The notes under the pieces were generated by a model. That model saw only the letters and a list, made by a program, of their open reading frames with translations, had not been told where the DNA came from and made no database searches. Both the position numbers and the translations under genes were made by a program. DNA of 64,000 nt, from IMG/VR virus record IMGVR_UViG_3300045988_068528, positions 1 through 64,000 of that record; one strand, written 5' to 3'. The stretch is from a virus. Below, piece after piece: positions 23,596-53,910 of this stretch. Every line of letters starts with the position of its first letter. The stretch's first letter is position 1.

Positions 23596-24636
23596 CTATT
23601 GGCCACCTCCAGTTTGGCTTAGTTCCTCATCGGGCTCGTCGTCGTCCTTATCATAGACTCCGAATAGCTTGAGGGTGTTGCTGTCGATTTCCGTCTTTCC
23701 GACGATGTAGCGCATCGTCATCTGAATGTTTGGCTTACCGTTGCTGGTATGGCCCATCATGACGGCAATCTGTTCCAATGGTACGCCTTTCTTGGAGAGA
23801 TTCGTGGCGAACGAACGTCTGCCGGTGTGCGAAGAGATGAAGCGGTACTTCTTTCCGGTCTCCTCCTTTCCAGCCTTGAATACCTTCGTGTTCGCATCTA
23901 TTCCGCATTCACGGCAAATGTCACGAAGAGTTCGGTTGAAGGTCATCTCGCTGATTTCGCCAGGGAGAGGCTCTGGGCCCGTGCCGCATACCAGGAACGG
24001 ACGGAGCTTCTTGTGGAGAGGAACCCTTACCTCCGTCTTGGTCTTCTGTGACACATACACCAGGAAGTGCCCGGTATCATCGATGTTCTCAGGAGTTATC
24101 CTCTGGCAGTCGCTGTAGCGCGCACCGCAGAGGCATTCCATGAGAAACATGCGCTGAACATATCTCTTTGTTTGTCCTCTTGGATTGTAATTTATGATTC
24201 TGTTTATCTCCTCATCCGAGAGATAGACGGACTGTACGGGCACGGCCTTCGTTCTGAGTATCTTTCCGAACGTCGGGCTGTTGATCTCCTTTGTAGCATC
24301 GTTCTCACGTATGACCGCCTTGATGGTGGCGCATACGGTCTTTGCGGAATTTGGAGCGTAGTTCTCCTTGATCTTCTCGAAGAGGTCACGGAGGTTGTCG
24401 TCGGTGATGTCTTCCCACAATGGCTTGTGGCCCAACAGCTCCTCGAACATTCTCACGACCTTGATGAACTTCGGATACTTCCAGATGTAAGCTCCGTAGA
24501 AGGTGTTGTGCCTCCACGCGTTGTCGTGATAGTTGGCGAACCAGCCCTGCTTGATAGCGAGCTTGTACTTCTCCTGCTGAACAGGACTCAGCAGACGCTC
24601 CCAGTCTCTAGTCTTGATTCTTATTTCTTCTGTCAT
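23596..24636 (-). CDS. second tyrosine recombinase (integrase-family)
   Basis: 346 aa. The C-terminus shows SSHTGRRSFATNL...MMGHTS...TMRYI (R, H-x-x-R, Y). Confidence 0.85.
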   Translation of the reverse strand: MTEEIRIKTRDWERLLSPVQQEKYKLAIKQGWFANYHDNAWRHNTFYGAYIWKYPKFIKVVRMFEELLGHKPLWEDITDDNLRDLFEKIKENYAPNSAKTVCATIKAVIRENDATKEINSPTFGKILRTKAVPVQSVYLSDEEINRIINYNPRGQTKRYVQRMFLMECLCGARYSDCQRITPENIDDTGHFLVYVSQKTKTEVRVPLHKKLRPFLVCGTGPEPLPGEISEMTFNRTLRDICRECGIDANTKVFKAGKEETGKKYRFISSHTGRRSFATNLSKKGVPLEQIAVMMGHTSNGKPNIQMTMRYIVGKTEIDSNTLKLFGVYDKDDDEPDEELSQTGGGQ

Positions 24637-26414: not shown

Positions 26415-27119
26415 CTAGTGTGCAAGAAATCCTACCGCCTGGCCCTTGCCGATGGACCAGCATAGTCTGTCTTCCTTCAGGCATTCTGTGCAGTTTCCGG
26501 TACATAGACGTGTTCCTTCCGGAGCAGACGTTCCGCTCTCGAAGATAGGATGCGCTTCTGGAAAACCGTGGCGGTTGTCCATATTGAGACCAAGCCATCC
26601 GCTGAATAGGATGTGCATGTTCTCGGGAATGACGTTTCCATCATCGATGTACTCGTTACATACATCGAACATTTTGGTGAACGCCAGGAACTTGGCATCC
26701 TTATGCTTGCGAGCAATCTCGCACATCTTGTCAAGATACCATTTGTTCTGTATGTCGCCACCGATGTGGAATCTGAATGCTCTAGGGAATCTGTAGTCGA
26801 GATACCCGTCAATCTCCTTGAAGTATCGTTCGGGATCCTCGTGGTAGATTGCAGAGTTGATAGCTCTCGTCTTGATAACCTCTTTATAGATGAAGTCGTT
26901 GCGAAGGTCGTAGCAGCTCTTCGCACAGATTGCACAGTTGCCGCAATCCATGACCGGGATAAGTGACAACGAAGGGATTGCTCCCAACTTTGTATTACCA
27001 TCACTGATCTTGACGTGCAAGTCGCTGACGTTCTCTACTGCATCCTCATAAGCTGCCTGTGCCTTTGAAAGACGCGTCCTCATTCCTTCCTTACCTAATG
27101 TCCAGTAATTTCTACTCAT
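26415..27119 (-). CDS. Cys-rich protein resembling the phage GP88 family (putative Fe-S or metal-binding protein)
   Basis: It shows DCGNCAICAKSCY followed by FRFHIGGD and FLAFTK, plus a C-terminal CTGNCTEC. The resemblance is from memory. Confidence 0.5.
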   Translation of the reverse strand: MSRNYWTLGKEGMRTRLSKAQAAYEDAVENVSDLHVKISDGNTKLGAIPSLSLIPVMDCGNCAICAKSCYDLRNDFIYKEVIKTRAINSAIYHEDPERYFKEIDGYLDYRFPRAFRFHIGGDIQNKWYLDKMCEIARKHKDAKFLAFTKMFDVCNEYIDDGNVIPENMHILFSGWLGLNMDNRHGFPEAHPIFESGTSAPEGTRLCTGNCTECLKEDRLCWSIGKGQAVGFLAH

Positions 27120-27895: not shown

Positions 27896-28954
27896 CTACT
27901 TACTGGCGATTACCTTCTCGACCTTATCCTTATGCCACTCGTTAATCTTGCCCTGGATGTCGATATCGTTCTCTATAATGAGCTGCTTGAGAACACCGAG
28001 CATTCTCCAGCCCTGCTCATCATAGAGCTTTGCTTTAGACTCAAGCTCCTTCAACGAGTTGGCCTCTGACATCTTCCGTCCGTTTTTCCAGAATCTGGCT
28101 CCGTGGAACATAATGAGGTTTCTCATCGTGTAGTAGGAACCAGAACCTTTGTAGGCATTGATGAAAGCATCTGATTGCTTGGTTTCCCATGCGAGATGCT
28201 TGCGCTTCTTGTTGAACTTGTGAACTGCATCATAGAGCTGCTTGTATGTAGGGACAGCCGCCATCTCGTTAGCAATCTCTCTGAGAGGTGTGTAGACTTT
28301 CTTTTCCAAGTCGCTGACAAAGATATCCTTGTTCTGAAGACGTACGTAAGGATTACCCTTGCAGGTGTGCTTGAAAGATTTCGTCTTCTTTCCGTCCTTG
28401 TCTTTCTTCCAGATAAGATTGTCATCCACGTACTTGCGGAGCTTGCTGATGTAGTCAGTAGCCATGTTGCTGGCAACGTCTCCGCTAAACCATCGGCTTC
28501 TAGAACCGACATTATCAAAGTCTCCGTGCTCAGACATCTTTACCTGAGCATAGAGTTCGTTCTCCAACATGCGCCACTGGTACTCGTAGCCCTTGTGCTG
28601 TAACACCTCGTTGAATGACTTGCCGTCCTTCTCCATGTCTCGCAACATGTGGAACATCTGCGACATCACCCAGCGGCGGAACAACTTCCAGTTGTTTACG
28701 TATCCACCCTCGACAATCTTCTTGCCTACCGCATCGATGGTTGCATCGTCCATGTCTACAGGAACCGCTGCACCATTCTCGATCTTGATAAGCTGGTCAT
28801 TTCCGAGAGGGAAGTACTTGCTCACGTCAACACCTGCTGCCTTCAGAGCTTCGAGACGCATCTGTGCCTTGGTCTTCTTGGTAGCTGCTGTAGCCTCTAC
28901 ATTGCTAGTTACGATGTTCAAGTTTTCTCCAGTGATTGTTACAATCTGCTTCAT
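27896..28954 (-). CDS. hypothetical protein
   Basis: 352-aa ORF. Confidence 0.65.
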   Translation of the reverse strand: MKQIVTITGENLNIVTSNVEATAATKKTKAQMRLEALKAAGVDVSKYFPLGNDQLIKIENGAAVPVDMDDATIDAVGKKIVEGGYVNNWKLFRRWVMSQMFHMLRDMEKDGKSFNEVLQHKGYEYQWRMLENELYAQVKMSEHGDFDNVGSRSRWFSGDVASNMATDYISKLRKYVDDNLIWKKDKDGKKTKSFKHTCKGNPYVRLQNKDIFVSDLEKKVYTPLREIANEMAAVPTYKQLYDAVHKFNKKRKHLAWETKQSDAFINAYKGSGSYYTMRNLIMFHGARFWKNGRKMSEANSLKELESKAKLYDEQGWRMLGVLKQLIIENDIDIQGKINEWHKDKVEKVIASK

Positions 28955-29010: not shown

Positions 29011-29463
29011 TTACGCCCCACCCTTGTTTGGCTCAATCCAGTCTCTAAGGATAATCAGGTCCTTGTCGTTCTTGGAACGCCAGAACCACGTTCCCCATGA
29101 GTTATCCCACCAGAGGTTGCCTTTGAGTAGCTGAATCAGTACGTACAGCTCCAGCTTGCATCTCGCTACCTCTCGTCGCTCTCCGTACATCATATCTTCG
29201 TCTGAGAGCTCTTTCTCGGGCAAGGCCTTGAAGTAGTGCCGGCGATGTGATTCGGAGCGTTCTGACGGTACAGAATGCTTGTACGCTGCGTATCTCTGCT
29301 CGATGCCAACAAACACAACCTCGGGTGTAAGGTAAGGCGTGTCCTTCGGCTTGTCTTCCTCGGACATTACTACCTTGCCATTTACACGGCATGTTCTCTT
29401 CTGAAAGTTGATGGTGAACTTAGCACCATTCTCAACTGAATTGATGATTTCTTCGTATGTCAT
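29011..29463 (-). CDS. hypothetical protein
   Basis: 150-aa ORF. Confidence 0.6.
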   Translation of the reverse strand: MTYEEIINSVENGAKFTINFQKRTCRVNGKVVMSEEDKPKDTPYLTPEVVFVGIEQRYAAYKHSVPSERSESHRRHYFKALPEKELSDEDMMYGERREVARCKLELYVLIQLLKGNLWWDNSWGTWFWRSKNDKDLIILRDWIEPNKGGA

Positions 29464-30808
29464 ATTCTTAAAATATTGGTTAATAGTAGTGCGCTCAGAG
29501 AATCTGTTGCGTAACTATATGCTTTTGATATGTACAGTATTATAGTCCTGAGACTCCTGGATATAATCCAGTGATTCTCAGGATGCTGAATACTGTATTT
29601 ACAATCGATTCTCCTTGCGCACCATTCGGCTCGCAATAACCTAGTCTGGCTCAACCTGACACGTTGCATTGCTTTAAGCTTTCGATTAAGGGCATGTCAT
29701 TGTTATGAAGCCAACATCCAGGAAGCGAATGCTTCCCCATCCTTGGCTTCAGAATCAATGAAACGCTAGATGAACTCTCAGAACTTGCCAGACATCGCTG
29801 CAATGCGCATGACTTATCTCATGTATTATGTTGCATGGATATATGTTCGTGATTCGACCCCGTGTTTGGATACGGCCGTCGGTACAGATATGTATCGACG
29901 GCGGTATTCCACTCACGTGGTATTAAACCTCATACTCTTGATAAGTCGTGATGCAATTCACTTTGGTTGTGGCAGGTACACTTATAGGTCTGTTGCCTAC
30001 CTCTATCTTGACGATTGAGGGATCTTGCAATACGCGAGATTGCTGGTATCACCAGCCATATCGCGTTGATACAGAGATCGCGACATAAAGAATCCCTCCT
30101 CGTGTACCTCGTTTGGCAATAACGTTGTCTTCATCTGAGAACGTGACACGTAGCTGTAGCAGCTTGATCTGAGGGATGTTAACCCGCCGGATGACGCTGT
30201 GGATTCACAGCATTAGCCGGCGAGCACAACATCACTCGTAAATTAACTCCCCTCTGAAGACTACCCTCGTGCTCGGGTAGTTCCCTGACCGATGGCTCGG
30301 CACAATACTTTATGTTTCTGATTTGACACAGGATTCGCCAGAATTCAGGATCCGGGTCACCGCTCATAGTTATGACGGTTACCAGGATCCGGACTTCTGG
30401 TTAAGAGACCTGTTGCGTAAACATTGCCATCCGTCAGGGATTGGTGGTGTGCGCCACCGGTGGAAGTAATACGGACTGGCACATTTCTGTACTTCATTGA
30501 TGAGCTACGCCTTGTGCGTCATACGAAGGGCCCGAGGTGTCTCAAGTTGTAAACTTGGATAACTTGGTCCCTTCAGATGATGTTATAGAGGCGTCGCCTG
30601 AATCTGTCCGTCCTTCTCCTACGTCCGTGTGCTCGGTTACAGAGTCTGCCGGTCAGAAGATACTGCGCATAGCTATATCAGTTCGATAGTATCCTGGTCG
30701 AGAGGATCGCAGGACCATCTCTGATTCAGAGATAGGTCCGCGATCTTCGAGACCGGATGTTTAAAACATTCTTCTTCATCCCGGCAGTTCCTTGCGCTAG
30801 GTGCTAAT
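29464..30808. ncRNA. 1.3-kb ORF-free, GC-enriched, hairpin-dense region adjacent to the RT gene; candidate large structured RNA or cDNA template. Strand unresolved; G-T positions mostly favour the plus strand.
   Basis: More than 20 local stem-loops were identified by hand. Examples are 29533-29597, 29710-29750, 29875-29902, 30019-30100, 30185-30222, 30328-30400, 30440-30461 and 30691-30758. Only two short, implausible ORFs are present. Confidence 0.5.
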
Positions 30809-32074
30809 CTATAGAGTATTCACCAATGTGTTGTACGCTGCCCTGCTCGTTCGCAAGGCATTCTGAGCACAACCTATCGATAGATATCCCTTGATTTCGC
30901 TCTCTGTCTTACTCCTGTTGGCTTTCACGTTTCTGCCACGACCTCGGTCTATGCAACCTACAGCCTGAGTCTTCACGTATCCGAGACCACCAACCTTACT
31001 CTTGCCTGTCTTGACCGCACGGATGCAGTCCATAACGAATGCGTTGAGCTTGTCGATGTCCTCTTTCACGTTTATGACCGGAAGAACCTGAGTAGCCCAG
31101 GAATAATCGCAGTACCCCTTGTAGAGATATCTGTTTACTGCATTGATGGCTTTCGTCATCGTGGTGTCACGCTTCTTTATCGTCCTTTTCTCAATCTCCT
31201 TTTGAAAGGTCTTGATACGTGTGGACGACAGGGAGATATTGTGACCCTTGATGGAATATCCCAAGAACTTGAACCAGTGATTAGCGTCAAGATACTCAAC
31301 CTTCTTCGGATTGAGCGTCATCTGCATCATCTCCAGCTCGCTCTTCATGATATCCATGGCTTTCTCATAGTCTTCACCAACAAACAGCGTATCATCGGAA
31401 TAGCGGACGTAATATCCGTTAAGCCTAGATAGCTTGTCGTCAAGATGATAGAGAATGACATCAGCCAGCCACGCAGCAACAGAGCATCCCTGCTTGAGGG
31501 ACTGATACTTCTCGCAGAGGTTGTTGTCCTCATCAAAATAGATATCCGTGTGATAGTAGTCACGAATGACGTCTATCAGCGCAGACTTTCCGTACTTCTC
31601 CTCTACCTTGTCAAATGCCCAGTCGATGAACCGAATAGGCACAGAATCAAAGTACTTAGAGAAGTCACCTTTCCACCCGATGATTTTTCCCTCTGCCGAG
31701 TATATTATCCGAGACACTTCCTGCACCACACAACCGCAGCCGATACCTTTCTGGTACGACGTGCAGCGTGGATGCACCATCTCTGGCATCAGCTCGAACA
31801 GGAGGTCGTTGGCGATGCTCAAGAGGATTCTGTCCACAGCCTCATTCACATAGACTGTACGGAAATCTCCGTTGTCTTTAGGAATCTTGGCTGTATGAGG
31901 CGGCATTATCTTGTAATTGCCGCTCTTGATTCTCTGATACATAGCCAGACGAGCCTTTGGCTCTGTCAGCTGATACATTACTGCTTTGTTCATGTCCTTG
32001 AACAAGCCTTTTTCAATGGCATACTGCCATCTGGCTTTCTCGAAGAACATCTCTAGGATTCTGTCTTCATTCAT
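30809..32074 (-). CDS. reverse transcriptase (RNA-directed DNA polymerase), 421 aa
   Basis: RT motifs are present: FRTVYVNEAVDRIL (motifs 1-2), GDFSKYFDSV (motif A), LKQGCSVAAWLADV (motif B-like), YVRYSDDTLFVG (YxDD) and FKFLGYSI. Confidence 0.9.
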   Translation of the reverse strand: MNEDRILEMFFEKARWQYAIEKGLFKDMNKAVMYQLTEPKARLAMYQRIKSGNYKIMPPHTAKIPKDNGDFRTVYVNEAVDRILLSIANDLLFELMPEMVHPRCTSYQKGIGCGCVVQEVSRIIYSAEGKIIGWKGDFSKYFDSVPIRFIDWAFDKVEEKYGKSALIDVIRDYYHTDIYFDEDNNLCEKYQSLKQGCSVAAWLADVILYHLDDKLSRLNGYYVRYSDDTLFVGEDYEKAMDIMKSELEMMQMTLNPKKVEYLDANHWFKFLGYSIKGHNISLSSTRIKTFQKEIEKRTIKKRDTTMTKAINAVNRYLYKGYCDYSWATQVLPVINVKEDIDKLNAFVMDCIRAVKTGKSKVGGLGYVKTQAVGCIDRGRGRNVKANRSKTESEIKGYLSIGCAQNALRTSRAAYNTLVNTL

Positions 32075-32334: not shown

Positions 32335-32562
32335 CTAGTCGATGTGCTGATAAGTCTCGCCGTAATCTTTCTCGTAATCTGCGTAGAACTGCTGGTCAGA
32401 TTCAACTTGCACCTGTTCTCCTATAAAATCGTCTGAGTCGAGAACGATTTCGCAGTTATTGTAGGCATCGTTCACTGCACTCACTGCCTCAGCCTCACTC
32501 TCGGCATCAACGCTCACTACCTTGTTTAAAGTCTCTGTGACTGATACGTAATATCTCTTCAT
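32335..32562 (-). CDS. acidic small hypothetical protein (start at MKRYYVS)
   Basis: The cassette AGAATTATG context lies at 32562. Confidence 0.55.
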   Translation of the reverse strand: MKRYYVSVTETLNKVVSVDAESEAEAVSAVNDAYNNCEIVLDSDDFIGEQVQVESDQQFYADYEKDYGETYQHID

Positions 32563-32590
32563 AATTCTTGTAATTTTGGTTAATATTGTT

Positions 32591-32633
32591 CCGTGTCGGG
32601 TCTCGAACCCGATGTGCGCCTGGTCGCTCACGG
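32591..32633 (-). other. tRNA-like acceptor/T-arm minihelix occupying the hairpin slot of one cassette
   Basis: The minus sense reads CCGTG-(16 nt)-TCGGG-TTCGAGA-CCCGA-CACGG. Confidence 0.45.
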
Positions 32634-49471: not shown

Positions 49472-51178
49472 TTACTCCTTTATGGTCTTCCAGTTGTTAC
49501 GGCCCGGCCAGTTGCCGTTCTCATCCCAGTCTGTCCCGCTTTTGTTCGGTCTGCCAGCGCCACGACCAGTACGTACGTTTCCGCTGCCTCCATTCTGAAT
49601 CTTCGCCGTTGCCTTCTGCTCCTCGATAGCATTCTGGGTTTCGTTATCCGCACGTTGCATATCCATGAGGAGGTCTTGCTGGTCTTCCTCCTTCTTCTCA
49701 CGCATGATACGCTCATACTCGGCAGTCTTAGGGAAGTCAGGGCAGCGTTCTGAAGCCGTCTGCTTAGAGAGGAATCCGTTCTGAACCGCAGTGGCAATAT
49801 TTGTAATTTGTTCTGTTTTATTACTATGAACATACGGACTTATCCATGCGTTGATTGGAAGCCCAGACATTGTAGCGACGCAGTTTTCATCAGTACCGAT
49901 GCCGAACTGACAGATGCGGAGAATCTTATCCAGGAATGGCTGTAACTCCTGTGCATCATTCATTGCAACCTCCAGTGCAGGAGAATAGAGAAGCTTGATG
50001 GCTACACCTGGGAGGTCACCGGACTTCAACTCAGGCGGCTTCACGGTGAACGACAGCTCATAGATGAGGTCATACGACTTGTTGAGCTGTGTAGCGAAGG
50101 CATCAGAGGCATCCGTGCCATTCAAGAATTCAGCTTTGCCGTTAGTGTCCGTAATCATAATTGTCTTCGCAGAGCCGGTCATATCGTCGCCGGTTATAGA
50201 AATATCCTCACCATCGCCAGTGAGCGTAAGGATTGGGAAAGCGTACGCCTTGTTGTTCTCGCAGAGATATGAGAATGCTTCCTCATAGTCCTCGATGTTC
50301 TTCTGAACCATAAACCAGCAAGGTCCGTCGTTACGTGCGTAGGCTACCGGCACGAACTGGAAGCCGTGGTCCTTCTCTTCGATGAGGGTGTAGTCATCAA
50401 TTCCGAAAATCCTTGCAATCTTCGTCATTACCTCTTTCACCTTTCCTGACTTGACAGCCTTCTTGAAGCGGTAGAACTTCCGGTTATCCCAAGCCTCGAC
50501 ATATTCGGTCTTCTCGTTGCCCTCATCGTCGTAGTCGTAGTACTTCCTGGCAAAGCACAAAAGGTCGCCAGTGAGTGAATCGACGTGTGGGTACAGGATA
50601 TCTCCACGATCATAAGAGAGTGTTCGTGTGCAGAATTTCTTCTTTTCATCGAAGAAACCGACGATTGCACATTCTGCAACCTTCAGATATGCACTTACAG
50701 CTTCAAAGAAGCGAATCTCCATATCGTGCATAAGCCAGCCCTTCTTGAATACATCGAGGGTCTTCTGATTCTCCTCTACCTTCTTCTCGTTCTCGTAGTC
50801 ATCACCATCAGCAAGCTCGAACTGAACATCGTTGCCAGTCAAGTGCAGCAGATGCTTCGTGTGGATGAGCTGCTGGAATGCAAAGGCTGTGCGCTGAATC
50901 TTCTGGCAGTACCACCTGTTATTCTCAGGGTTCAACTTCCAGATGTCCGGGTATTCCTTCTCATCCATAATCCTATGGGCAGATGGGTAATACTCACGCA
51001 GGAAGTCTGCCTGCGTCTTGATGCGGCGATACATGGTGTCGTCTGGCATCGTTCCGTCGTAATAGTCAGGAACAACGTCGCTTACAGCTGAGTGCTTCAT
51101 GTACCCCGCAGGAGTAAGCTCGTAGAATGGTTTCCTTACGAGCAGCTCCCTTACATTATTTACCTTGATAGCCTCCAT
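49472..51178 (-). CDS. portal protein
   Basis: 568 aa, located between the large terminase and the MuF-like gene, with an acidic/basic C-terminal tail. Confidence 0.7.
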   Translation of the reverse strand: MEAIKVNNVRELLVRKPFYELTPAGYMKHSAVSDVVPDYYDGTMPDDTMYRRIKTQADFLREYYPSAHRIMDEKEYPDIWKLNPENNRWYCQKIQRTAFAFQQLIHTKHLLHLTGNDVQFELADGDDYENEKKVEENQKTLDVFKKGWLMHDMEIRFFEAVSAYLKVAECAIVGFFDEKKKFCTRTLSYDRGDILYPHVDSLTGDLLCFARKYYDYDDEGNEKTEYVEAWDNRKFYRFKKAVKSGKVKEVMTKIARIFGIDDYTLIEEKDHGFQFVPVAYARNDGPCWFMVQKNIEDYEEAFSYLCENNKAYAFPILTLTGDGEDISITGDDMTGSAKTIMITDTNGKAEFLNGTDASDAFATQLNKSYDLIYELSFTVKPPELKSGDLPGVAIKLLYSPALEVAMNDAQELQPFLDKILRICQFGIGTDENCVATMSGLPINAWISPYVHSNKTEQITNIATAVQNGFLSKQTASERCPDFPKTAEYERIMREKKEEDQQDLLMDMQRADNETQNAIEEQKATAKIQNGGSGNVRTGRGAGRPNKSGTDWDENGNWPGRNNWKTIKE

Positions 51179-53910
51179 AATCCTTTTACCTTTTTATTTT
51201 TCTTTTTTGTTAAACTGAATATCATTACGTAGAACCAAGACTCAAAGAAGTCAGGTGAGTGCCCGACATACTTCTTGGCCTTCTTTTTAGGCATAAGTTT
51301 GAATCCCCTATCATCTCCGTCTTCGTCACGTCGGAGCATCTTTCGCTCCTTTTGGAGAATTTGTCTTAGGGGAACTTTATCGAATCCGTCACCCGAATAC
51401 TTTCGTTCCAACAGCTGCGAGTCGATGGATATTTTCTTCTCTTTCACCATCTTGTAGAATAACCAAGCGCATTGAGACTTTAAGTCCTTGTATAAGTACT
51501 TGATTCCTTCCTCTTCTTGGTGATTGGCAGGAATAGGAGCCGCCTGGTTGTTGAATGGAACCGCTTCTTTGAAGAATCCCTTGAAGTACTGCCCTATACC
51601 CTGCATGTCGTATGTGAAGTTACATTCCTCAACACCCCACTCGCGCAATCTTGTCTGGACAACAGAAACGAGCGTCTTGGAGTCGATTCTTGACACGATG
51701 AGGTCTTTGCAATGGTTTCCTTCCCAAAGCCACATCACGAAGTTATCGCCGCCGGTGAAAGCAATATCGGCAGAAGCTCTGCGTTTTCCATCTCCTATCT
51801 GTTCTGCATTGTCGTAGATTTCATCAAGGTCTTCCATCTTGATCATGTCATCGCCGGCAGCCTTCCAGTTCCAGTTGGCTTCCAGGTCTCGCATACGCTG
51901 TTCCTCGTCCTGTTGGGCAAGGTTGGCGAGATATGAGACATCGGTAGAGATAAGCTTAATGTTCTCTGATACGTCAGCGCGAACGAATGTTGCCGACTTG
52001 ATGAACATTTCGAGCTTTGTGTATCCAAGTTCATCGTAGCTGTCCTTCCAGAGGCTATCGATGATGCCCTTGCACTGTTCGTATACCTCTTCTCTTGTGT
52101 TACCCCAGTAGATTGAGTCCGGAGTATCACCATCCATGAAGCAGTAACGGATAACTCCATCTCGCTCCGGTATAATGTATCCATTCTCGTCAACCCACCA
52201 GTCGATGAACTTTCTCACCCAAGATTCCGGGTCCGGGTTACAGGTAATCCAGAAGCGGTTTCGGATATGTGCTGCGTTTCGGTTGTTGGTCAAGAGGTAC
52301 TTGAACTTCTTGTATGGGCACTGAGTACCCTCATCGATGCAGACATAGGCATATTGGCGACCCTGGAATCGTGTTTTGAAGTCCTGATAGGCTCCAGCAT
52401 AGTACGAGAATTTGAGCCATCCTCCGTTATCGAAGTTCCAGGTCATGTCATTTTGTGACTTATTGTAAGTTCCAAATTGGGAGAACAATTTATAAGAGTC
52501 TGTCACCAAGGACTGCAAGTCATCTTTTTCGTTACGAAGAATTGTTGCATGAAAGTCCGGGCTCTTGATATCCTTCAGAACTTCCATAAGGGAAGAGAAG
52601 GACTTGGAATTGTGAGTGACTATGAAGTCTTCCACCATAAACAGAGAATTTGTATTGTTCACTGCAATACAGCAGCACTCCTTCTCTCCTACATATTCAA
52701 AATCAACAATCCTTCTTCCCAGTTCGCTTACGCCGCCATTGTACTCGGTACAAAGCGCCTTCTTACGTGGAAGACGAAATAAGCGTTCTGACTGATTAAT
52801 TCTGATGTAAATATCATAATAATCGCTTGCCTCAATACGCTCTCCATTCTTGGTATAGTGGTTCTCGTACTTATTTATAGTGGCAAGGCCTCCAAGGCTG
52901 TTTACTAAAAACTTAACGTCTTTAGCAAGCTGCTCACTGACTGTCGCAAACGTACAATGTCCACGCTTATCCACAGTACCATCGGTATCCATAAGTCCTT
53001 GAAGGATAGCCCACCTTGTCTCTATAGAGCCAAACTTATAGAAATCGGGAACAGACTTATTGAAAGCGTCGCAGCCGTAGAGCTTTAAACCCTCAAGATC
53101 ATTACGTAATCTCTCATCCTTGATTCTGTAATCACAAGCTATACTGCCTTGTTCTTGTGCATAGTTAGTCATATCGATGCCAGCACTCTCAAACTCTCTC
53201 ACGATATCTTCGTCTGCGCTACAGAGCATGGCATCATAACTTCCATTCTTTATATTTGCGGTTATACATCCATCTCCAAGTATGGCGCCAATAACATAAG
53301 GTGAGCTCGTTGGTTTGTAATGACGATTTCCCCAAGAGCGAGTAAACTTTACAGGCTCACACAAAGGTATGAGCAACTTGCTATTTTTAATCTCGCCAGT
53401 CTTCAGCTTTGCGAGGTGGTCAACAACCATCTGGGTGGTCCATACCCTATAATCATCATTGATAGATAACCCGTTAATGATTCTCTTCTTACTTCTATAA
53501 CAAGTCTTACGTACATTCCAGAGGTGGTCGTATGATGCAATAACTTCAGACCCATCGACAAACTTTAGTTTGTAAGCAGGAAGTTTGCCGTGGTCTTTAC
53601 GATATACGACACGCTGCATTCCACCATCAGTTCCACTGATGATGTCTCCTGCCTTTAAATCCCCGATGCGCCTATAGCCAAATGGTGTAACTACCTTTGT
53701 ATCAACGAGAAGTGGACCGCCTCGCGAGCCGCCAACTATCTTAATATCAGCGTCTATAGACAGCATGCGCTCCTGTCCGCCACGCTGAGCTATAATCTTC
53801 AGCTTGTCGGGATGCTTCTTGTCGGTGTCTCGTAGAGACTGAATATACTCTTGCGTATATACAGGTTCTCCGTTATCCAATTTTAATCCTGAAAATACGT
53901 CTTTTTGCAT
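51160..53910 (-). CDS. terL: terminase large subunit interrupted by an intein
   Basis: The exteins read VGGSRGG / SKSFSS (split P-loop). Other terminase features are YVCIDEG (Walker B), CNPD and the nuclease C-terminal region. Confidence 0.85.
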   Translation of the reverse strand: MQKDVFSGLKLDNGEPVYTQEYIQSLRDTDKKHPDKLKIIAQRGGQERMLSIDADIKIVGGSRGGPLLVDTKVVTPFGYRRIGDLKAGDIISGTDGGMQRVVYRKDHGKLPAYKLKFVDGSEVIASYDHLWNVRKTCYRSKKRIINGLSINDDYRVWTTQMVVDHLAKLKTGEIKNSKLLIPLCEPVKFTRSWGNRHYKPTSSPYVIGAILGDGCITANIKNGSYDAMLCSADEDIVREFESAGIDMTNYAQEQGSIACDYRIKDERLRNDLEGLKLYGCDAFNKSVPDFYKFGSIETRWAILQGLMDTDGTVDKRGHCTFATVSEQLAKDVKFLVNSLGGLATINKYENHYTKNGERIEASDYYDIYIRINQSERLFRLPRKKALCTEYNGGVSELGRRIVDFEYVGEKECCCIAVNNTNSLFMVEDFIVTHNSKSFSSLMEVLKDIKSPDFHATILRNEKDDLQSLVTDSYKLFSQFGTYNKSQNDMTWNFDNGGWLKFSYYAGAYQDFKTRFQGRQYAYVCIDEGTQCPYKKFKYLLTNNRNAAHIRNRFWITCNPDPESWVRKFIDWWVDENGYIIPERDGVIRYCFMDGDTPDSIYWGNTREEVYEQCKGIIDSLWKDSYDELGYTKLEMFIKSATFVRADVSENIKLISTDVSYLANLAQQDEEQRMRDLEANWNWKAAGDDMIKMEDLDEIYDNAEQIGDGKRRASADIAFTGGDNFVMWLWEGNHCKDLIVSRIDSKTLVSVVQTRLREWGVEECNFTYDMQGIGQYFKGFFKEAVPFNNQAAPIPANHQEEEGIKYLYKDLKSQCAWLFYKMVKEKKISIDSQLLERKYSGDGFDKVPLRQILQKERKMLRRDEDGDDRGFKLMPKKKAKKYVGHSPDFFESWFYVMIFSLTKKKNKKVKGLWRLSR
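52609..53715 (-). mobile_element. intein (369 aa) with a LAGLIDADG homing-endonuclease domain inserted in the terminase P-loop
   Basis: It begins PLLVDTKVVTP, ends FIVTHN followed by +1 Ser, and carries the LAGLIDADG motifs VIGAILGDGC and ILQGLMDTDGTV. Confidence 0.75.

Follow-up and report, generated by a model that had tools for sequence, protein, structure and literature searches.

A complete UG27 reverse transcriptase locus of a phage with a tandem array of eight covarying, pseudoknotted modules

The stretch of viral DNA analysed here (the window; 64,000 nucleotides, positions 1 to 64,000 of IMG/VR record IMGVR_UViG_3300045988_068528) carries a complete UG27 system, a standard copy of a system that has been published. 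All of its parts lie on the minus strand: the gene for a 421-aa reverse transcriptase (RT) of the UG27 class (30809..32074), a non-coding region of 1345 nt (29464..30808), and the genes for the UG27 accessory proteins RTas346 (29011..29463; 150 aa) and RTas337 (27896..28954; 352 aa). Elsewhere the window encodes a portal protein, TerL, a major head protein, a primase and integrases. The carrier is probably a temperate tailed phage of Segatella/Prevotella, a judgement which forms part of the overall reading given below.

The RT matches the PADLOC profile RT_UG27 over its full length (model positions 2–420 of 420; E 3.2e-226, 749 bits), and also Pfam RVT_1 (E 2.6e-17). The runner-up families among the PADLOC profiles are UG26 (E 2.4e-32), Drt9 (E 1.7e-28) and UG17 (E 4.6e-25), followed at a distance by Drt2 (E 5.7e-12) and the best retron models (~1e-11); with scores this far below the UG27 match, the enzyme falls outside UG28, UG17 and UG2. 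The motifs first read from this ORF, GDFSKYFDSV, YVRYSDD, FLGY and QGCSVAAW, are all present, and the catalytic Asp and the YxDD box are invariant among 21 diverse homologues. The original prediction placed the RT closest to the enzymes of diversity-generating retroelements (DGRs) and retrons; this does not hold, as the protein is a full-length UG27 enzyme of the UG/Abi family. The same prediction was correct in finding the DGR signature (I/L)GxxxSQ missing: the position reads LKQGCSVAAW, with QG kept across the family. Profile placement thus assigns the RT to a class whose published putative ncRNA occupies this same intergenic region, and the layout, which had been thought to match no known system, is that of the UG27 system published in 2022, predicted intergenic ncRNA included.

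Near-identical RTs (96–99% amino acid identity) occur in 80 IMG/VR phage contigs, and one 90% protein cluster of the UG27 RT alone holds 6,526 sequences. Used as a single-protein query, the 50%-identity representative P0133 retrieved no locus from viral contigs. A Segatella copri chromosome encodes an RT 98% identical to that of the window, and the cultured Bacteroides phage BS-TP1 encodes one that is 67% identical; together with the phage genes of the window, these relatives agree with the residence of UG27 in phages of Bacteroidetes/Firmicutes hosts. Among 72 relatives, variation in the RT gene is 0.0115, 0.004 and 0.087 at the three codon positions. Nearly all of it thus falls at third positions, indicating that the enzyme is under purifying selection.

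Both accessory proteins are identified by their PADLOC profiles: RTas346 at E 1.3e-60 (positions 3–147 of 147) and RTas337, which is mostly helical, at E 7.2e-111. RTas346 is found on the same strand in 78 of 92 divergent loci and RTas337 in 75 of the 92, and in two loci (L093 and L130) RTas346 is fused onto the C-terminus of the RT. Pfam, PHROGs and PDB profile searches gave nothing significant for either protein. The AlphaFold2 model of RTas346 is good (pLDDT 87, pTM 0.85), and a Foldseek search with it against PDB and BFVD matched only its own homologue; the model of RTas337 is of low confidence (pLDDT 57) and too poor for a fold search.

The region between the RT and RTas346 was described as free of credible ORFs, and its longest ORF is indeed no more than 82 aa. 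In the 72 relatives it varies equally in all three phases (0.102, 0.104 and 0.107), showing no 3-nt periodicity. A higher GC content than the flanks was also claimed; the region (0.471) exceeds the window mean (0.436) only, being level with the RT gene (0.471) and below the next gene (0.494). The claims made for its structure fare better. The consensus structure has 24 hairpin loops with 700 of 1345 columns paired, in agreement with the more than 20 stem-loops first counted, and the four helices named individually all exist: 29875–29902 (12 bp), 30328–30400 (25 bp), 30019–30100, and 30691–30758 (27–28 bp). Eight segments of ~165 nt fold at z = -2.8 to -8.6 relative to dinucleotide shuffles while flanking coding tiles average -1.5, so that hairpin density is well above chance. 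The helices are conserved among homologues with dense compensatory pairs, and the RNAalifold covariation term for the region is ~256. A catalytically intact phage RT therefore does lie beside a structured, conserved, covarying non-coding region, at the point where UG27 systems have one, after the RT and ahead of the first accessory gene.

It could be supposed that the region is a remnant, namely a decayed protein gene, a DGR template repeat, a retron msr/msd or what is left of a group II intron, and the second-tier similarities of the RT are indeed to group II intron and retron enzymes. This is hardly credible. A decayed gene is refuted by the absence of codon periodicity and by the density of compensatory pairs. 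A low-stringency blastn search of the region against the 64-kb window matched only its own hairpin arms, so that within the window there is neither a second copy nor a DGR variable repeat, and the RT has no DGR motif. The RT scores 101.8 bits with TIGR04416, for which the cut-off is 300. Rfam models at gathering thresholds found two unrelated tRNAs and no intron family over the whole window; at E up to 5 over 29300–30950 they gave microRNA-model noise only, with no intron, retron or other family, and no family matched 29464–30808. The earlier exclusion of DGRs, retrons and group II introns is thus supported.

The region resolves into eight tandem modules, M1 to M8, which are structurally homologous, are arranged head-to-tail and measure ~165–180 nt each. 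Two models were used to detect them, one built from M8 orthologues only (R1) and one generic to the modules (R2). With filters off, R2 gives eight non-overlapping minus-strand matches which tile 29470–30812, and the array begins at the RT stop codon and stops 6 nt short of the start codon of RTas346. Three elements recur in each module: a closing helix, a long hairpin of variable sequence, and a small hairpin whose 6-nt loop is conserved and forms a pseudoknot with a segment 120–150 nt downstream. The closing helix is two-tiered, with a conserved G-U beside an AA/GA internal loop; in the apical long hairpin the sequence drifts freely, and the pairing is kept.

In RT-sense order, M1 (30645..30808) has the hexaloop AGCGCA (30798–30793), the pseudoknot GCGCA (30797–30793) with UGCGC (30669–30665), and a long hairpin at ~30692–30757; its R2 match (30627–30812; 37 bits, E 7e-8) lies outside the training set, and it folds at z = -4.4. 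M2 (30459..30644) has the hexaloop AGCACA (30633–30628), whose GCACA pairs with UGUGC (30483–30479), and a GNRA tetraloop (GAAA, 30487–30484) which reads GAAA, GAGA or GGAA in 70 of 72 relatives; R2 matches 30469–30613 at E 0.0018. M3 (30281..30458; R2 match 30267–30467, E 1.2e-4; z = -7.0) has the hexaloop CGCACA (30453–30448), the pseudoknot GCACA with UGUGC (30304–30300), and a 21-bp variable hairpin (30338–30400) with compensatory change in 11 of its 21 pairs. M4 (30123..30280) carries an 8-nt loop, GAGCACGA (30274–30267), and a pseudoknot of GCACG (30272–30268) with CGUGU (30150–30146) that contains one G-U on the RT-sense strand; R2 matches 30134–30253 at E 1.7e-4, and z is -5.5 in the sense and -2.9 in the antisense direction.

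The second half of the array follows the same plan. M5 (29963..30122) has the loop AUUGCC and pairs UUGCC (30119–30115) with GGCAA (29997–29993); it is matched by R1 (29957–30132, E 7e-6) and by R2 (87.6 bits). In M6 (29809..29962; R2 match 29809–29945, E 0.0014; z = -5.6) UUGCA of the hexaloop AUUGCA (29957–29952) pairs with UGCAA (29835–29831), and 14 of the 26 pairs of its variable hairpin (29857–29921) are compensatory. M7 (29644..29808; R2 match 29650–29787, E 0.015) repeats this hexaloop (29804–29799) and pseudoknot (UUGCA with UGCAA, 29668–29664). The matches of M2, M4, M6 and M7 to the generic model are weak, with E from 1.7e-4 to 0.015. M8 (29469..29643), the most widely conserved module, has the hexaloop AUUGCG (29637–29632), the pseudoknot UUGCG with CGCAA (29511–29507) and a closing helix GUGCGC/GCGCAC which includes the conserved G-U; it scores 197 bits with R1 and 154 bits with R2, and nhmmer finds it in loci whose RT is only ~67% identical.

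The structure is borne out by covariation. For M8, 86 matches show pairing in 88% of cells, against 57% after shuffling; 25 of the 26 pairs have changes in both partners, and the covariation score is 0.563, against 0.144 for shuffled and at most 0.08 for slid controls. The pseudoknot, assessed on an alignment which had not been fitted to it, is paired in 85.7% of cases (67.9% when shuffled) with a covariation of 0.347 against 0.168, a value reached by none of 500 shuffles. It covaries among the eight paralogous modules as well as between the window and BS-TP1.

Copy number varies across the family from 3 to 8, in whole units. Many close relatives lack M7 as one clean unit; L020, L030, L070 and L080, for example, are without RT-sense positions 999–1161 exactly. 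BS-TP1 has the same eight-module tiling as the window. Some relatives have an extra module downstream of RTas337; none was found there in this window. The modules are also tied to the system in position and direction: in 51 sources, 130 of 131 module matches are RT-sense, the single exception being a palindromic echo. Where RTas346 or the array is relocated, the modules remain RT-sense and adjoin system genes, as in L151, L157 and L165, where they lie beside RTas346 and upstream of the RT. By far most of the divergent loci, down to ~55% RT identity, retain the array along with the RT, RTas346 and RTas337.

These observations bear on the suggestion that the hairpins act at the level of DNA, as a cruciform or single-stranded element of a replication origin, packaging site or recombination hotspot with the RT as an incidental neighbour. 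Helices that are largely Watson-Crick, and hence strand-symmetric, and repeated units of varying copy number would both suit such an element. The long-range covarying pseudoknot, the conserved G-U pairs and the GNRA loop, on the other hand, are features of RNA; the units are highly diverged paralogues, unlike iterons, whose sequence is conserved; and linkage and co-orientation with the UG27 genes are strict across several phage families. A DNA-level role is accordingly very improbable.

If the array acts as RNA, its strand has to be considered. The original prediction noted a plus-strand preference of G-T positions and proposed a convergent plus-strand RNA, antisense to the RT, or else a plus-sense cDNA. 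Locally the preference is real for some hairpins of this sequence: the hairpin at 29875–29902 has an energy of -20.2 on the plus strand and -15.2 in RT sense, and that at 30691–30758 of -45.3 and -39.2, respectively. Across the family it disappears. In family-depth alignments, built without any structure model, G-U outnumbers A-C by ~2–3:1 on the RT-sense strand (22:10 and 78:42 for pairs common to both strands; 68:24 and 122:42 for the union of pairs), and the consensus energy is -27.2 in the sense against -22.8 in the antisense direction. The conserved G-U of the closing helix is present in 49 of 71 modules, none of which has A-C there, and a pseudoknot column has 21 G-U to 1 A-C; the conserved GNRA loop and the co-orientation of the modules with the RT likewise speak for this strand.

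The 72-sequence strain-level alignment gives 369 G-U to 282 A-C on common pairs, and A-C, corresponding to a plus-strand G-U, leads slightly when the union of pairs is counted. The three strain-level tests of strand, based on common pairs, on wobble positions inside helices and on the extension of helix ends, are each ambiguous. Family-depth alignments were therefore needed, and the single-sequence reading was misled. Most helices are nearly pure Watson-Crick (~94%), and hence either strand, or both an RNA and its cDNA, could fold. A constraint that would hold the long hairpins to Watson-Crick pairs for this purpose, as in a retron msd, finds no support either way, since G-U and A-C rates do not differ between these hairpins and the helices of the scaffold. 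Bordered directly by the RT stop codon and the start codon of RTas346, the array has no room for signals of its own, and it is embedded in a long one-directional gene block. No Bacteroidetes -33/-7 promoter motif was found near the array on either strand, and a scan with sigma-70 promoter and terminator models, which are unsuited to Bacteroidales, gave the same counts as shuffled sequence. Taken together, the family-level counts favour an RNA of the RT-sense (minus) strand, and a functional plus-strand molecule, whether RNA or cDNA, appears improbable.

The UG27 system is already known. Mestre et al. (Nucleic Acids Res 2022, PMC9226505) report it in 1,447 dereplicated genomes, with a putative structured ncRNA in the intergenic region in human-gut phages; the main text goes no further than three long stem-loops in an ncRNA termed putative and conserved. 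The locus shares with the published UG27 (UG/Abi, Class 2) its RT, both accessory genes, gene order, non-coding region and residence in gut Bacteroidales phages, and differs from it in nothing of kind. What is added here is the eight-module array, its pseudoknot, the copy number of 3 to 8 and the evidence for the RT-sense strand. The modular architecture may already be contained in Supplementary Fig. S6 of Mestre et al. or in a September 2026 preprint (10.64898/2026.09.22.753630). Term counts for the latter are UG27 74, ncRNA 53, cDNA 24, DRT2 18, pseudoknot 12, Bacteroides 8, template 7, cryo-EM 4 and tandem 3, with zero for rolling circle, tandem repeat, protein-primed and anti-defense. That preprint apart, the literature found gives no function or product for UG27.

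Characterised relatives provide looser analogies. The RTs of DRT2 (UG2), DRT9 (UG28) and DRT10 (UG17) bind an adjacent structured ncRNA, of which a short stretch is reverse-transcribed: a gene is assembled de novo by DRT2, and poly-dA is the product of DRT9. DRT10, whose RT and ncRNA yield cDNA of templated repeats, adds these repeats much as telomerase does, and its authors suggest that such synthesis may be general to UG systems. DRT9 and DRT10 are the next-nearest RT families of known mechanism and, like UG27, have a multi-stem-loop ncRNA adjoining the RT; their cDNA is protein-primed and consists of templated homopolymer or tandem repeats. Their ncRNAs are single-copy (that of DRT9 upstream of the RT) and bacterial defence has been demonstrated, whereas here eight tandem copies lie downstream of a phage-encoded RT, with no SLATT or other known effector. 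DRT2 is likewise a Class 2 UG RT with an essential structured ncRNA, though RT similarity is weak (E 6e-12); its ncRNA is single-copy, upstream of the RT and copied by rolling circle into a concatemeric ‘neo’ gene. The tandem repetition of UG27 lies in the genome itself and not in cDNA alone. Known DRT ncRNAs occur in one copy and for the most part precede the RT, so the analogy with UG27 is a loose one.

A likeness to retrons is also apparent, in that a closing helix surrounds a long hairpin of kept pairing and variable sequence beside an RT. Retron msDNA is branched, being primed from the 2'-OH of a conserved G in the msr. The present RT is not of the retron clade, and the array differs in its eight units, its position downstream of the RT and the additional pseudoknot.

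Whether the RNA is a template bears on a further alternative, in which it is never reverse-transcribed and serves as a protein-binding scaffold or sponge (for RTas346, RTas337 or host factors) or as a translational regulatory spacer, the RT using another substrate. No poly-U or A-B-A' template-like tract was identified in the array; telomerase-like A-B-A' candidates in junction loops were dropped, such short repeats being expected by chance in 25–30 nt. Eight repeated hairpin loops of conserved sequence resemble reiterated protein-binding sites, the modules adjoin RTas346 rather than follow the RT in the three loci noted above, and Class 1 UG RTs synthesise DNA without an RNA template. Set against this are the retention of array, RT and both accessory genes together in most divergent loci and the behaviour of the nearest characterised RTs (Drt9, UG17 and Drt2), all of which use an adjacent ncRNA as template or scaffold. 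A non-template role is therefore possible, if rather unlikely.

The reading preferred here, to which we give a probability of about 60%, is that of a complete UG27 system of a temperate Segatella/Prevotella phage in which an RT-sense modular RNA serves the RT. The 1345-nt region would most likely be transcribed in the sense of the RT, probably on the RT's own transcript, which would fold into eight consecutive modules of ~170 nt. At the 5' end of each, a mini-hairpin would present its 6-nt loop to a single-stranded stretch close to the 3' end of the same module, forming the predicted pseudoknot. By analogy with DRT2, DRT9 and DRT10, each module might offer the RT a docking site or a template, and from the same comparison we infer that the RT binds the array and synthesises cDNA. 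The modules may act as one multi-site scaffold or be processed into eight separate RNAs. RTas346, sometimes RT-fused, and RTas337 would then act with the resulting RNA–protein or cDNA complex, early in infection or on prophage induction. Mestre et al. saw no enrichment of UG27 in defence islands, which leaves counter-defence, superinfection exclusion or replication as candidate roles.

A more specific and speculative version holds that the UG27 RNA is a genomic, copy-number-variable array of eight pseudoknotted RT-cofactor modules, giving either a multi-RT particle built on one transcript or, after processing, eight different RT–RNA complexes which each make their own DNA during infection. Its closest formal parallel is a polycistronic array. 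We consider this doubtful; if true, it would be a use of an RT without a described counterpart among retrons, DGRs and DRTs.

UG27 RTs are among the most abundant of human-gut phages, and their characterised relatives have each revealed an unprecedented form of DNA synthesis. The map of the RNA given here offers targets for mutation, in the form of eight modules, their pseudoknots, a likely strand and natural copy-number variants, and the same architecture is present in the cultured pair BS-TP1 and Bacteroides salyersiae BG8 and in a prophage of a complete Segatella copri genome.

A 421-aa reverse transcriptase (RT) is encoded on the minus strand at 30809..32074; it matches Pfam RVT_1 and carries the motifs quoted in the original prediction. 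In a profile search, PADLOC RT_UG27 covers this protein from end to end (E 3.2e-226); the runner-up PADLOC families are UG26 (2e-32), Drt9/UG28 (2e-28), UG17 (5e-25) and Drt2 (6e-12). The enzyme had been thought closest to DGR/retron-type RTs, an assignment that must be abandoned, since the PADLOC retron models score only about 1e-11 against it. A group II intron type is likewise rejected, the NCBIfam equivalog giving 102 bits where its cut-off is 300. As had been noted, the RT lacks the DGR motif, and no second copy of the adjacent intergenic region that could act as a DGR variable repeat is found in the 64-kb window. Among solved structures, the sequence comes nearest to group II intron RTs (1e-28), entry 9ioa (1e-25) and Drt2 (4e-13), and a search of the PDB for a UG27 RT structure returned nothing closer. 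Variation by codon position among 72 distinct relatives is 0.0115/0.004/0.087; the RT is an active-looking, strongly conserved enzyme.

Downstream of the RT and its intergenic gap lie genes for two UG27 accessory proteins, PADLOC RTas346 (29011-29463, minus strand, E 1.3e-60) and then RTas337 (27896-28954, minus strand, E 7e-111). The layout is indeed unlike that of retrons, DGRs or group II introns. It does correspond to a known system: the presence of RT_UG27, RTas346, RTas337 and the published intergenic ncRNA makes this locus a textbook member of the UG27 system. [quoted passage not shown] 2022, PMC9226505). The same source describes defence-island enrichment as absent, and proposes an addiction or anti-defence role. 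A phage RT adjoining a large structured non-coding region has thus been known since 2022.

The window derives from a tailed phage encoding a portal, large terminase, major head protein, primase, Sak4-like annealase and two tyrosine integrases (16689-17867, plus strand; 23596-24636, minus strand). The RT is found at 96-99% amino acid identity in 80 IMG/VR contigs, and a 98%-identical RT resides in the complete chromosome of Segatella copri HDD04 (NZ_CP152484.1, about 918.8-925.1 kb; locus L173). Given the two integrases and this chromosomal copy, the phage is a temperate Segatella/Prevotella phage. Genomes of Bacteroides, Alistipes, Prevotella, Muribaculaceae and Butyricimonas carry RTs of 64-70% identity. 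The RT of the cultured Bacteroides phage BS-TP1 (L081, PQ571274.1 79351-80613), which infects Bacteroides salyersiae BG8, is 67% identical and annotated as “tail protein”; behind it come a 1349-nt gap without annotation and an RTas346 homologue. Two minus-strand tRNA genes match Rfam tRNA, at 11318-11397 (44.9 bits) and 12765-12836 (64.3 bits). The large-terminase ORF (51160-53910, minus strand) is unusually long at 916 aa; terminase profiles cover two separate halves, about 53-441 and 435-700, and the N-terminal part gives weaker helicase and primase-like matches, so that the ORF may be a fusion or contain an inserted element.

The gap that separates the RT stop codon from the following minus-strand gene (29011..29463) spans 1345 nt, and its longest ORF on either strand is 82 aa. 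Variation by phase among the 72 relatives is equal (0.102/0.104/0.107), unlike that of the RT gene, which rules out a coding or decayed gene and bears out the claim that the region lacks a credible ORF. The GC content had been described as higher than that of the flanks; at 0.471 it equals that of the RT gene, lies below that of the next gene (0.494), and exceeds only the window mean (0.436). Eight segments of ~165 nt have folding z-scores of -2.8 to -8.6 against dinucleotide shuffles, compared with a mean of -1.5 for flanking coding tiles, and four helices named in the original prediction fold as described there. Two coding control tiles, 31817-31984 in the 5′ part of the RT gene and 27896-28063 at the 3′ end of the RTas337 gene, reach -4.8 and -4.3 in the RT sense, as low as some of the segments in the gap, and may contain structured elements within coding sequence. 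Close relatives whose RTs are 96-99% identical share only about 80-85% nucleotide identity across the intergenic region, and this divergence makes covariation visible. RNAalifold gives a very large covariation term for 72 sequences, and many helices show compensatory changes, for example 11/21 pairs in 30338-30400 and 14/26 in 29857-29921. A search of the region against the Rfam covariance models matched no family.

The structure of this region (29464-30808) is that of a tandem array. A listing of hairpin loops reveals a small hairpin with a nearly invariant 6-nt loop, repeated at intervals of about 165 nt with the loop sequences AGCGCA, AGCACA, CGCACA, AUUGCA, AUUGCA and AUUGCG, together with two variants. 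Strict matches to this loop-hairpin number six in the RT sense, against 0.86 expected from the window density, and one on the other strand. A covariance model built from orthologues of the last unit alone (R1) also matches 29957-30132 (E 7e-6) and 30653-30776 in the window, and yields two or three hits in each locus of the divergent phages. When rebuilt from these diverse matches and run without filters, the model (R2) gives eight non-overlapping minus-strand matches which tile 29470-30812 (E 1e-34 to 0.015), and no further match elsewhere in the 64-kb window. These are modules M1, next to the RT, to M8, next to RTas346; M1 lay outside the R2 training set and is matched at E 7e-8. The BS-TP1 gap is likewise tiled by eight units, and 130 of 131 R2 matches from 51 sources are in the RT sense. 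Across 86 matches, 88.3% of cells are paired versus 57.2% after shuffling, 25 of 26 pairs are altered on both sides, and the covariation score is 0.563 versus 0.144, a value reached in 0/500 shuffles; sliding the partner by 1-3 columns reduces it to 0.04-0.08.

Each module also contains a pseudoknot, in which the 6-nt loop can pair with a complementary, single-stranded stretch lying 120-150 nt downstream of it. The loop and partner sequences are GCGCA/UGCGC in M1, GCACA/UGUGC in M2 and M3, GCACG/CGUGU in M4, UUGCC/GGCAA in M5, UUGCA/UGCAA in M6 and M7, and UUGCG/CGCAA in M8. BS-TP1 likewise has eight loop-partner pairs, whose sequences differ from these in a compensating way, as in the AACGUA/UACGU pair of the last unit. 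In the 131-match alignment, whose model is blind to pseudoknot pairing, 85.7% of pseudoknot cells are paired versus 67.9% when shuffled, and covariation is 0.347 versus 0.168, with 0/500 shuffles reaching 0.347 and slid controls at or below 0.09.

Wobble pairs bear on which strand folds. The original prediction favoured a plus-strand RNA, antisense to the RT, or a plus-sense cDNA, because of G-T positions in its helices; this preference holds for some hairpins of the window sequence, but at family depth G-U exceeds A-C on the RT-sense strand. In the strain-level alignment, pairs predicted on both strands include 369 G-U and 282 A-C, the interior and helix-end tests are split, and the union of pairs puts A-C slightly ahead; this balance is read as recent polymorphism, with both transition intermediates still segregating. 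In family-depth alignments made with MAFFT alone, without a structure model, G-U:A-C ratios are 22:10 and 78:42 for common pairs and 68:24 and 122:42 for the union of pairs, and the consensus energy is -27.2 in the RT sense versus -22.8 antisense. One closing-helix position is G-U in 49/71 modules and A-C in none, its variants being mostly Watson-Crick; one pseudoknot column has 21 G-U versus 1 A-C; and one tetraloop stays GNRA in 70/72 relatives. The array extends from the RT stop codon to 6 nt before the RTas346 start, within a long one-directional gene block, and no Bacteroidetes-type promoter is found at the array on either strand. We put the probability that the array is read in the RT sense at roughly 80-85%.

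Copy number varies by whole units, and exactly M7 is missing in many close relatives. Between the RT and RTas346 there are three units in L097, four in L090, five in L106, six (fully tiled) in L105, about seven in L107, L109 and L126, and eight in L098, L121, BS-TP1 and the window; some loci carry one or two more 3′ of RTas337. Among the close relatives L001-L080, the intergenic region is 788 to 1998 nt long, and most have an extra insertion of ~270 nt with a ~93-aa ORF between M8 and the RTas346 homologue (e.g. L153:6454-6735), which the window lacks. In L151, L157, L164 and L165 (e.g. L151:1844-2684) the homologues of RTas346 and RTas337 are found upstream of the RT, preceded by one to three modules, with another module 3′ of the RT. 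Splitting and rearrangement of the array are therefore possible with its orientation kept.

RTas346 accompanies the RT in 78/92 divergent loci and RTas337 in 75/92, always on the same strand, and no further conserved neighbour was found across these 92 loci. The neighbouring early genes for a DpnD/PcfM-like protein (32335-32631, minus strand, E 6e-18) and a GP88-family protein (26415-27119, minus strand, E 1e-16) are not kept with the system in divergent loci. RTas346 and RTas337 are two obligatory partner proteins of the RT, one of them sometimes fused to it: in L093 (3980-5647, 555 aa) and L130 (3998-5590, 530 aa) the RTas346 homologue forms the C-terminus of a single ORF with the RT, which argues that the two proteins physically cooperate. 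In both fusion loci the whole array lies 3′ of RTas337 rather than between RT and RTas346. The predicted fold of RTas346 is confident (pLDDT 87); its own homologue is the sole match in BFVD, and the PDB gives none. No good-quality model was obtained for RTas337, and profile searches against PDB and Pfam gave no significant hit for either of the two. An in-frame stop codon is present in homologues of RTas346 or RTas337 at L123:5454-5930, L097:6305-7276 and L121:5553-6743, which could reflect stop-codon reassignment, a pseudogene or an assembly error; reassignment was screened for in UG27-carrying genomes in the methods of Mestre et al. (2022, PMC9226505).

The eight-unit array, its pseudoknot, copy-number variation and strand, and the fusions go beyond the main text of that study. 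The detail of the array may already stand in a preprint of September 2026 on the mining of ncRNAs with a genome language model (10.64898/2026.09.22.753630), which mentions UG27 74 times and, by term counts, ncRNA 53, cDNA 24, pseudoknot 12 and tandem 3 times.

The RT is thus accompanied by eight pseudoknotted RNA modules, arrayed in its own orientation. In characterised Class 2 UG systems, the RT is described as binding an adjacent structured ncRNA and copying a short part of it repeatedly; the product is a concatemeric gene in DRT2, poly-dA in DRT9 and telomerase-like tandem repeats in DRT10. According to a suggestion of the DRT10 authors, repeat addition could be a general property of those UG systems for which no template has yet been identified. 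By analogy with these three systems, the array would be co-transcribed with the RT, each module would dock an RT, perhaps joined by RTas346, and would supply a template from part of its sequence, the array serving either as one multivalent scaffold or as the precursor of eight separate RNAs. The benefit to the phage may be counter-defence, the exclusion of other phages or a role in replication; UG27 is abundant, and a cultured phage-host pair makes the system testable.
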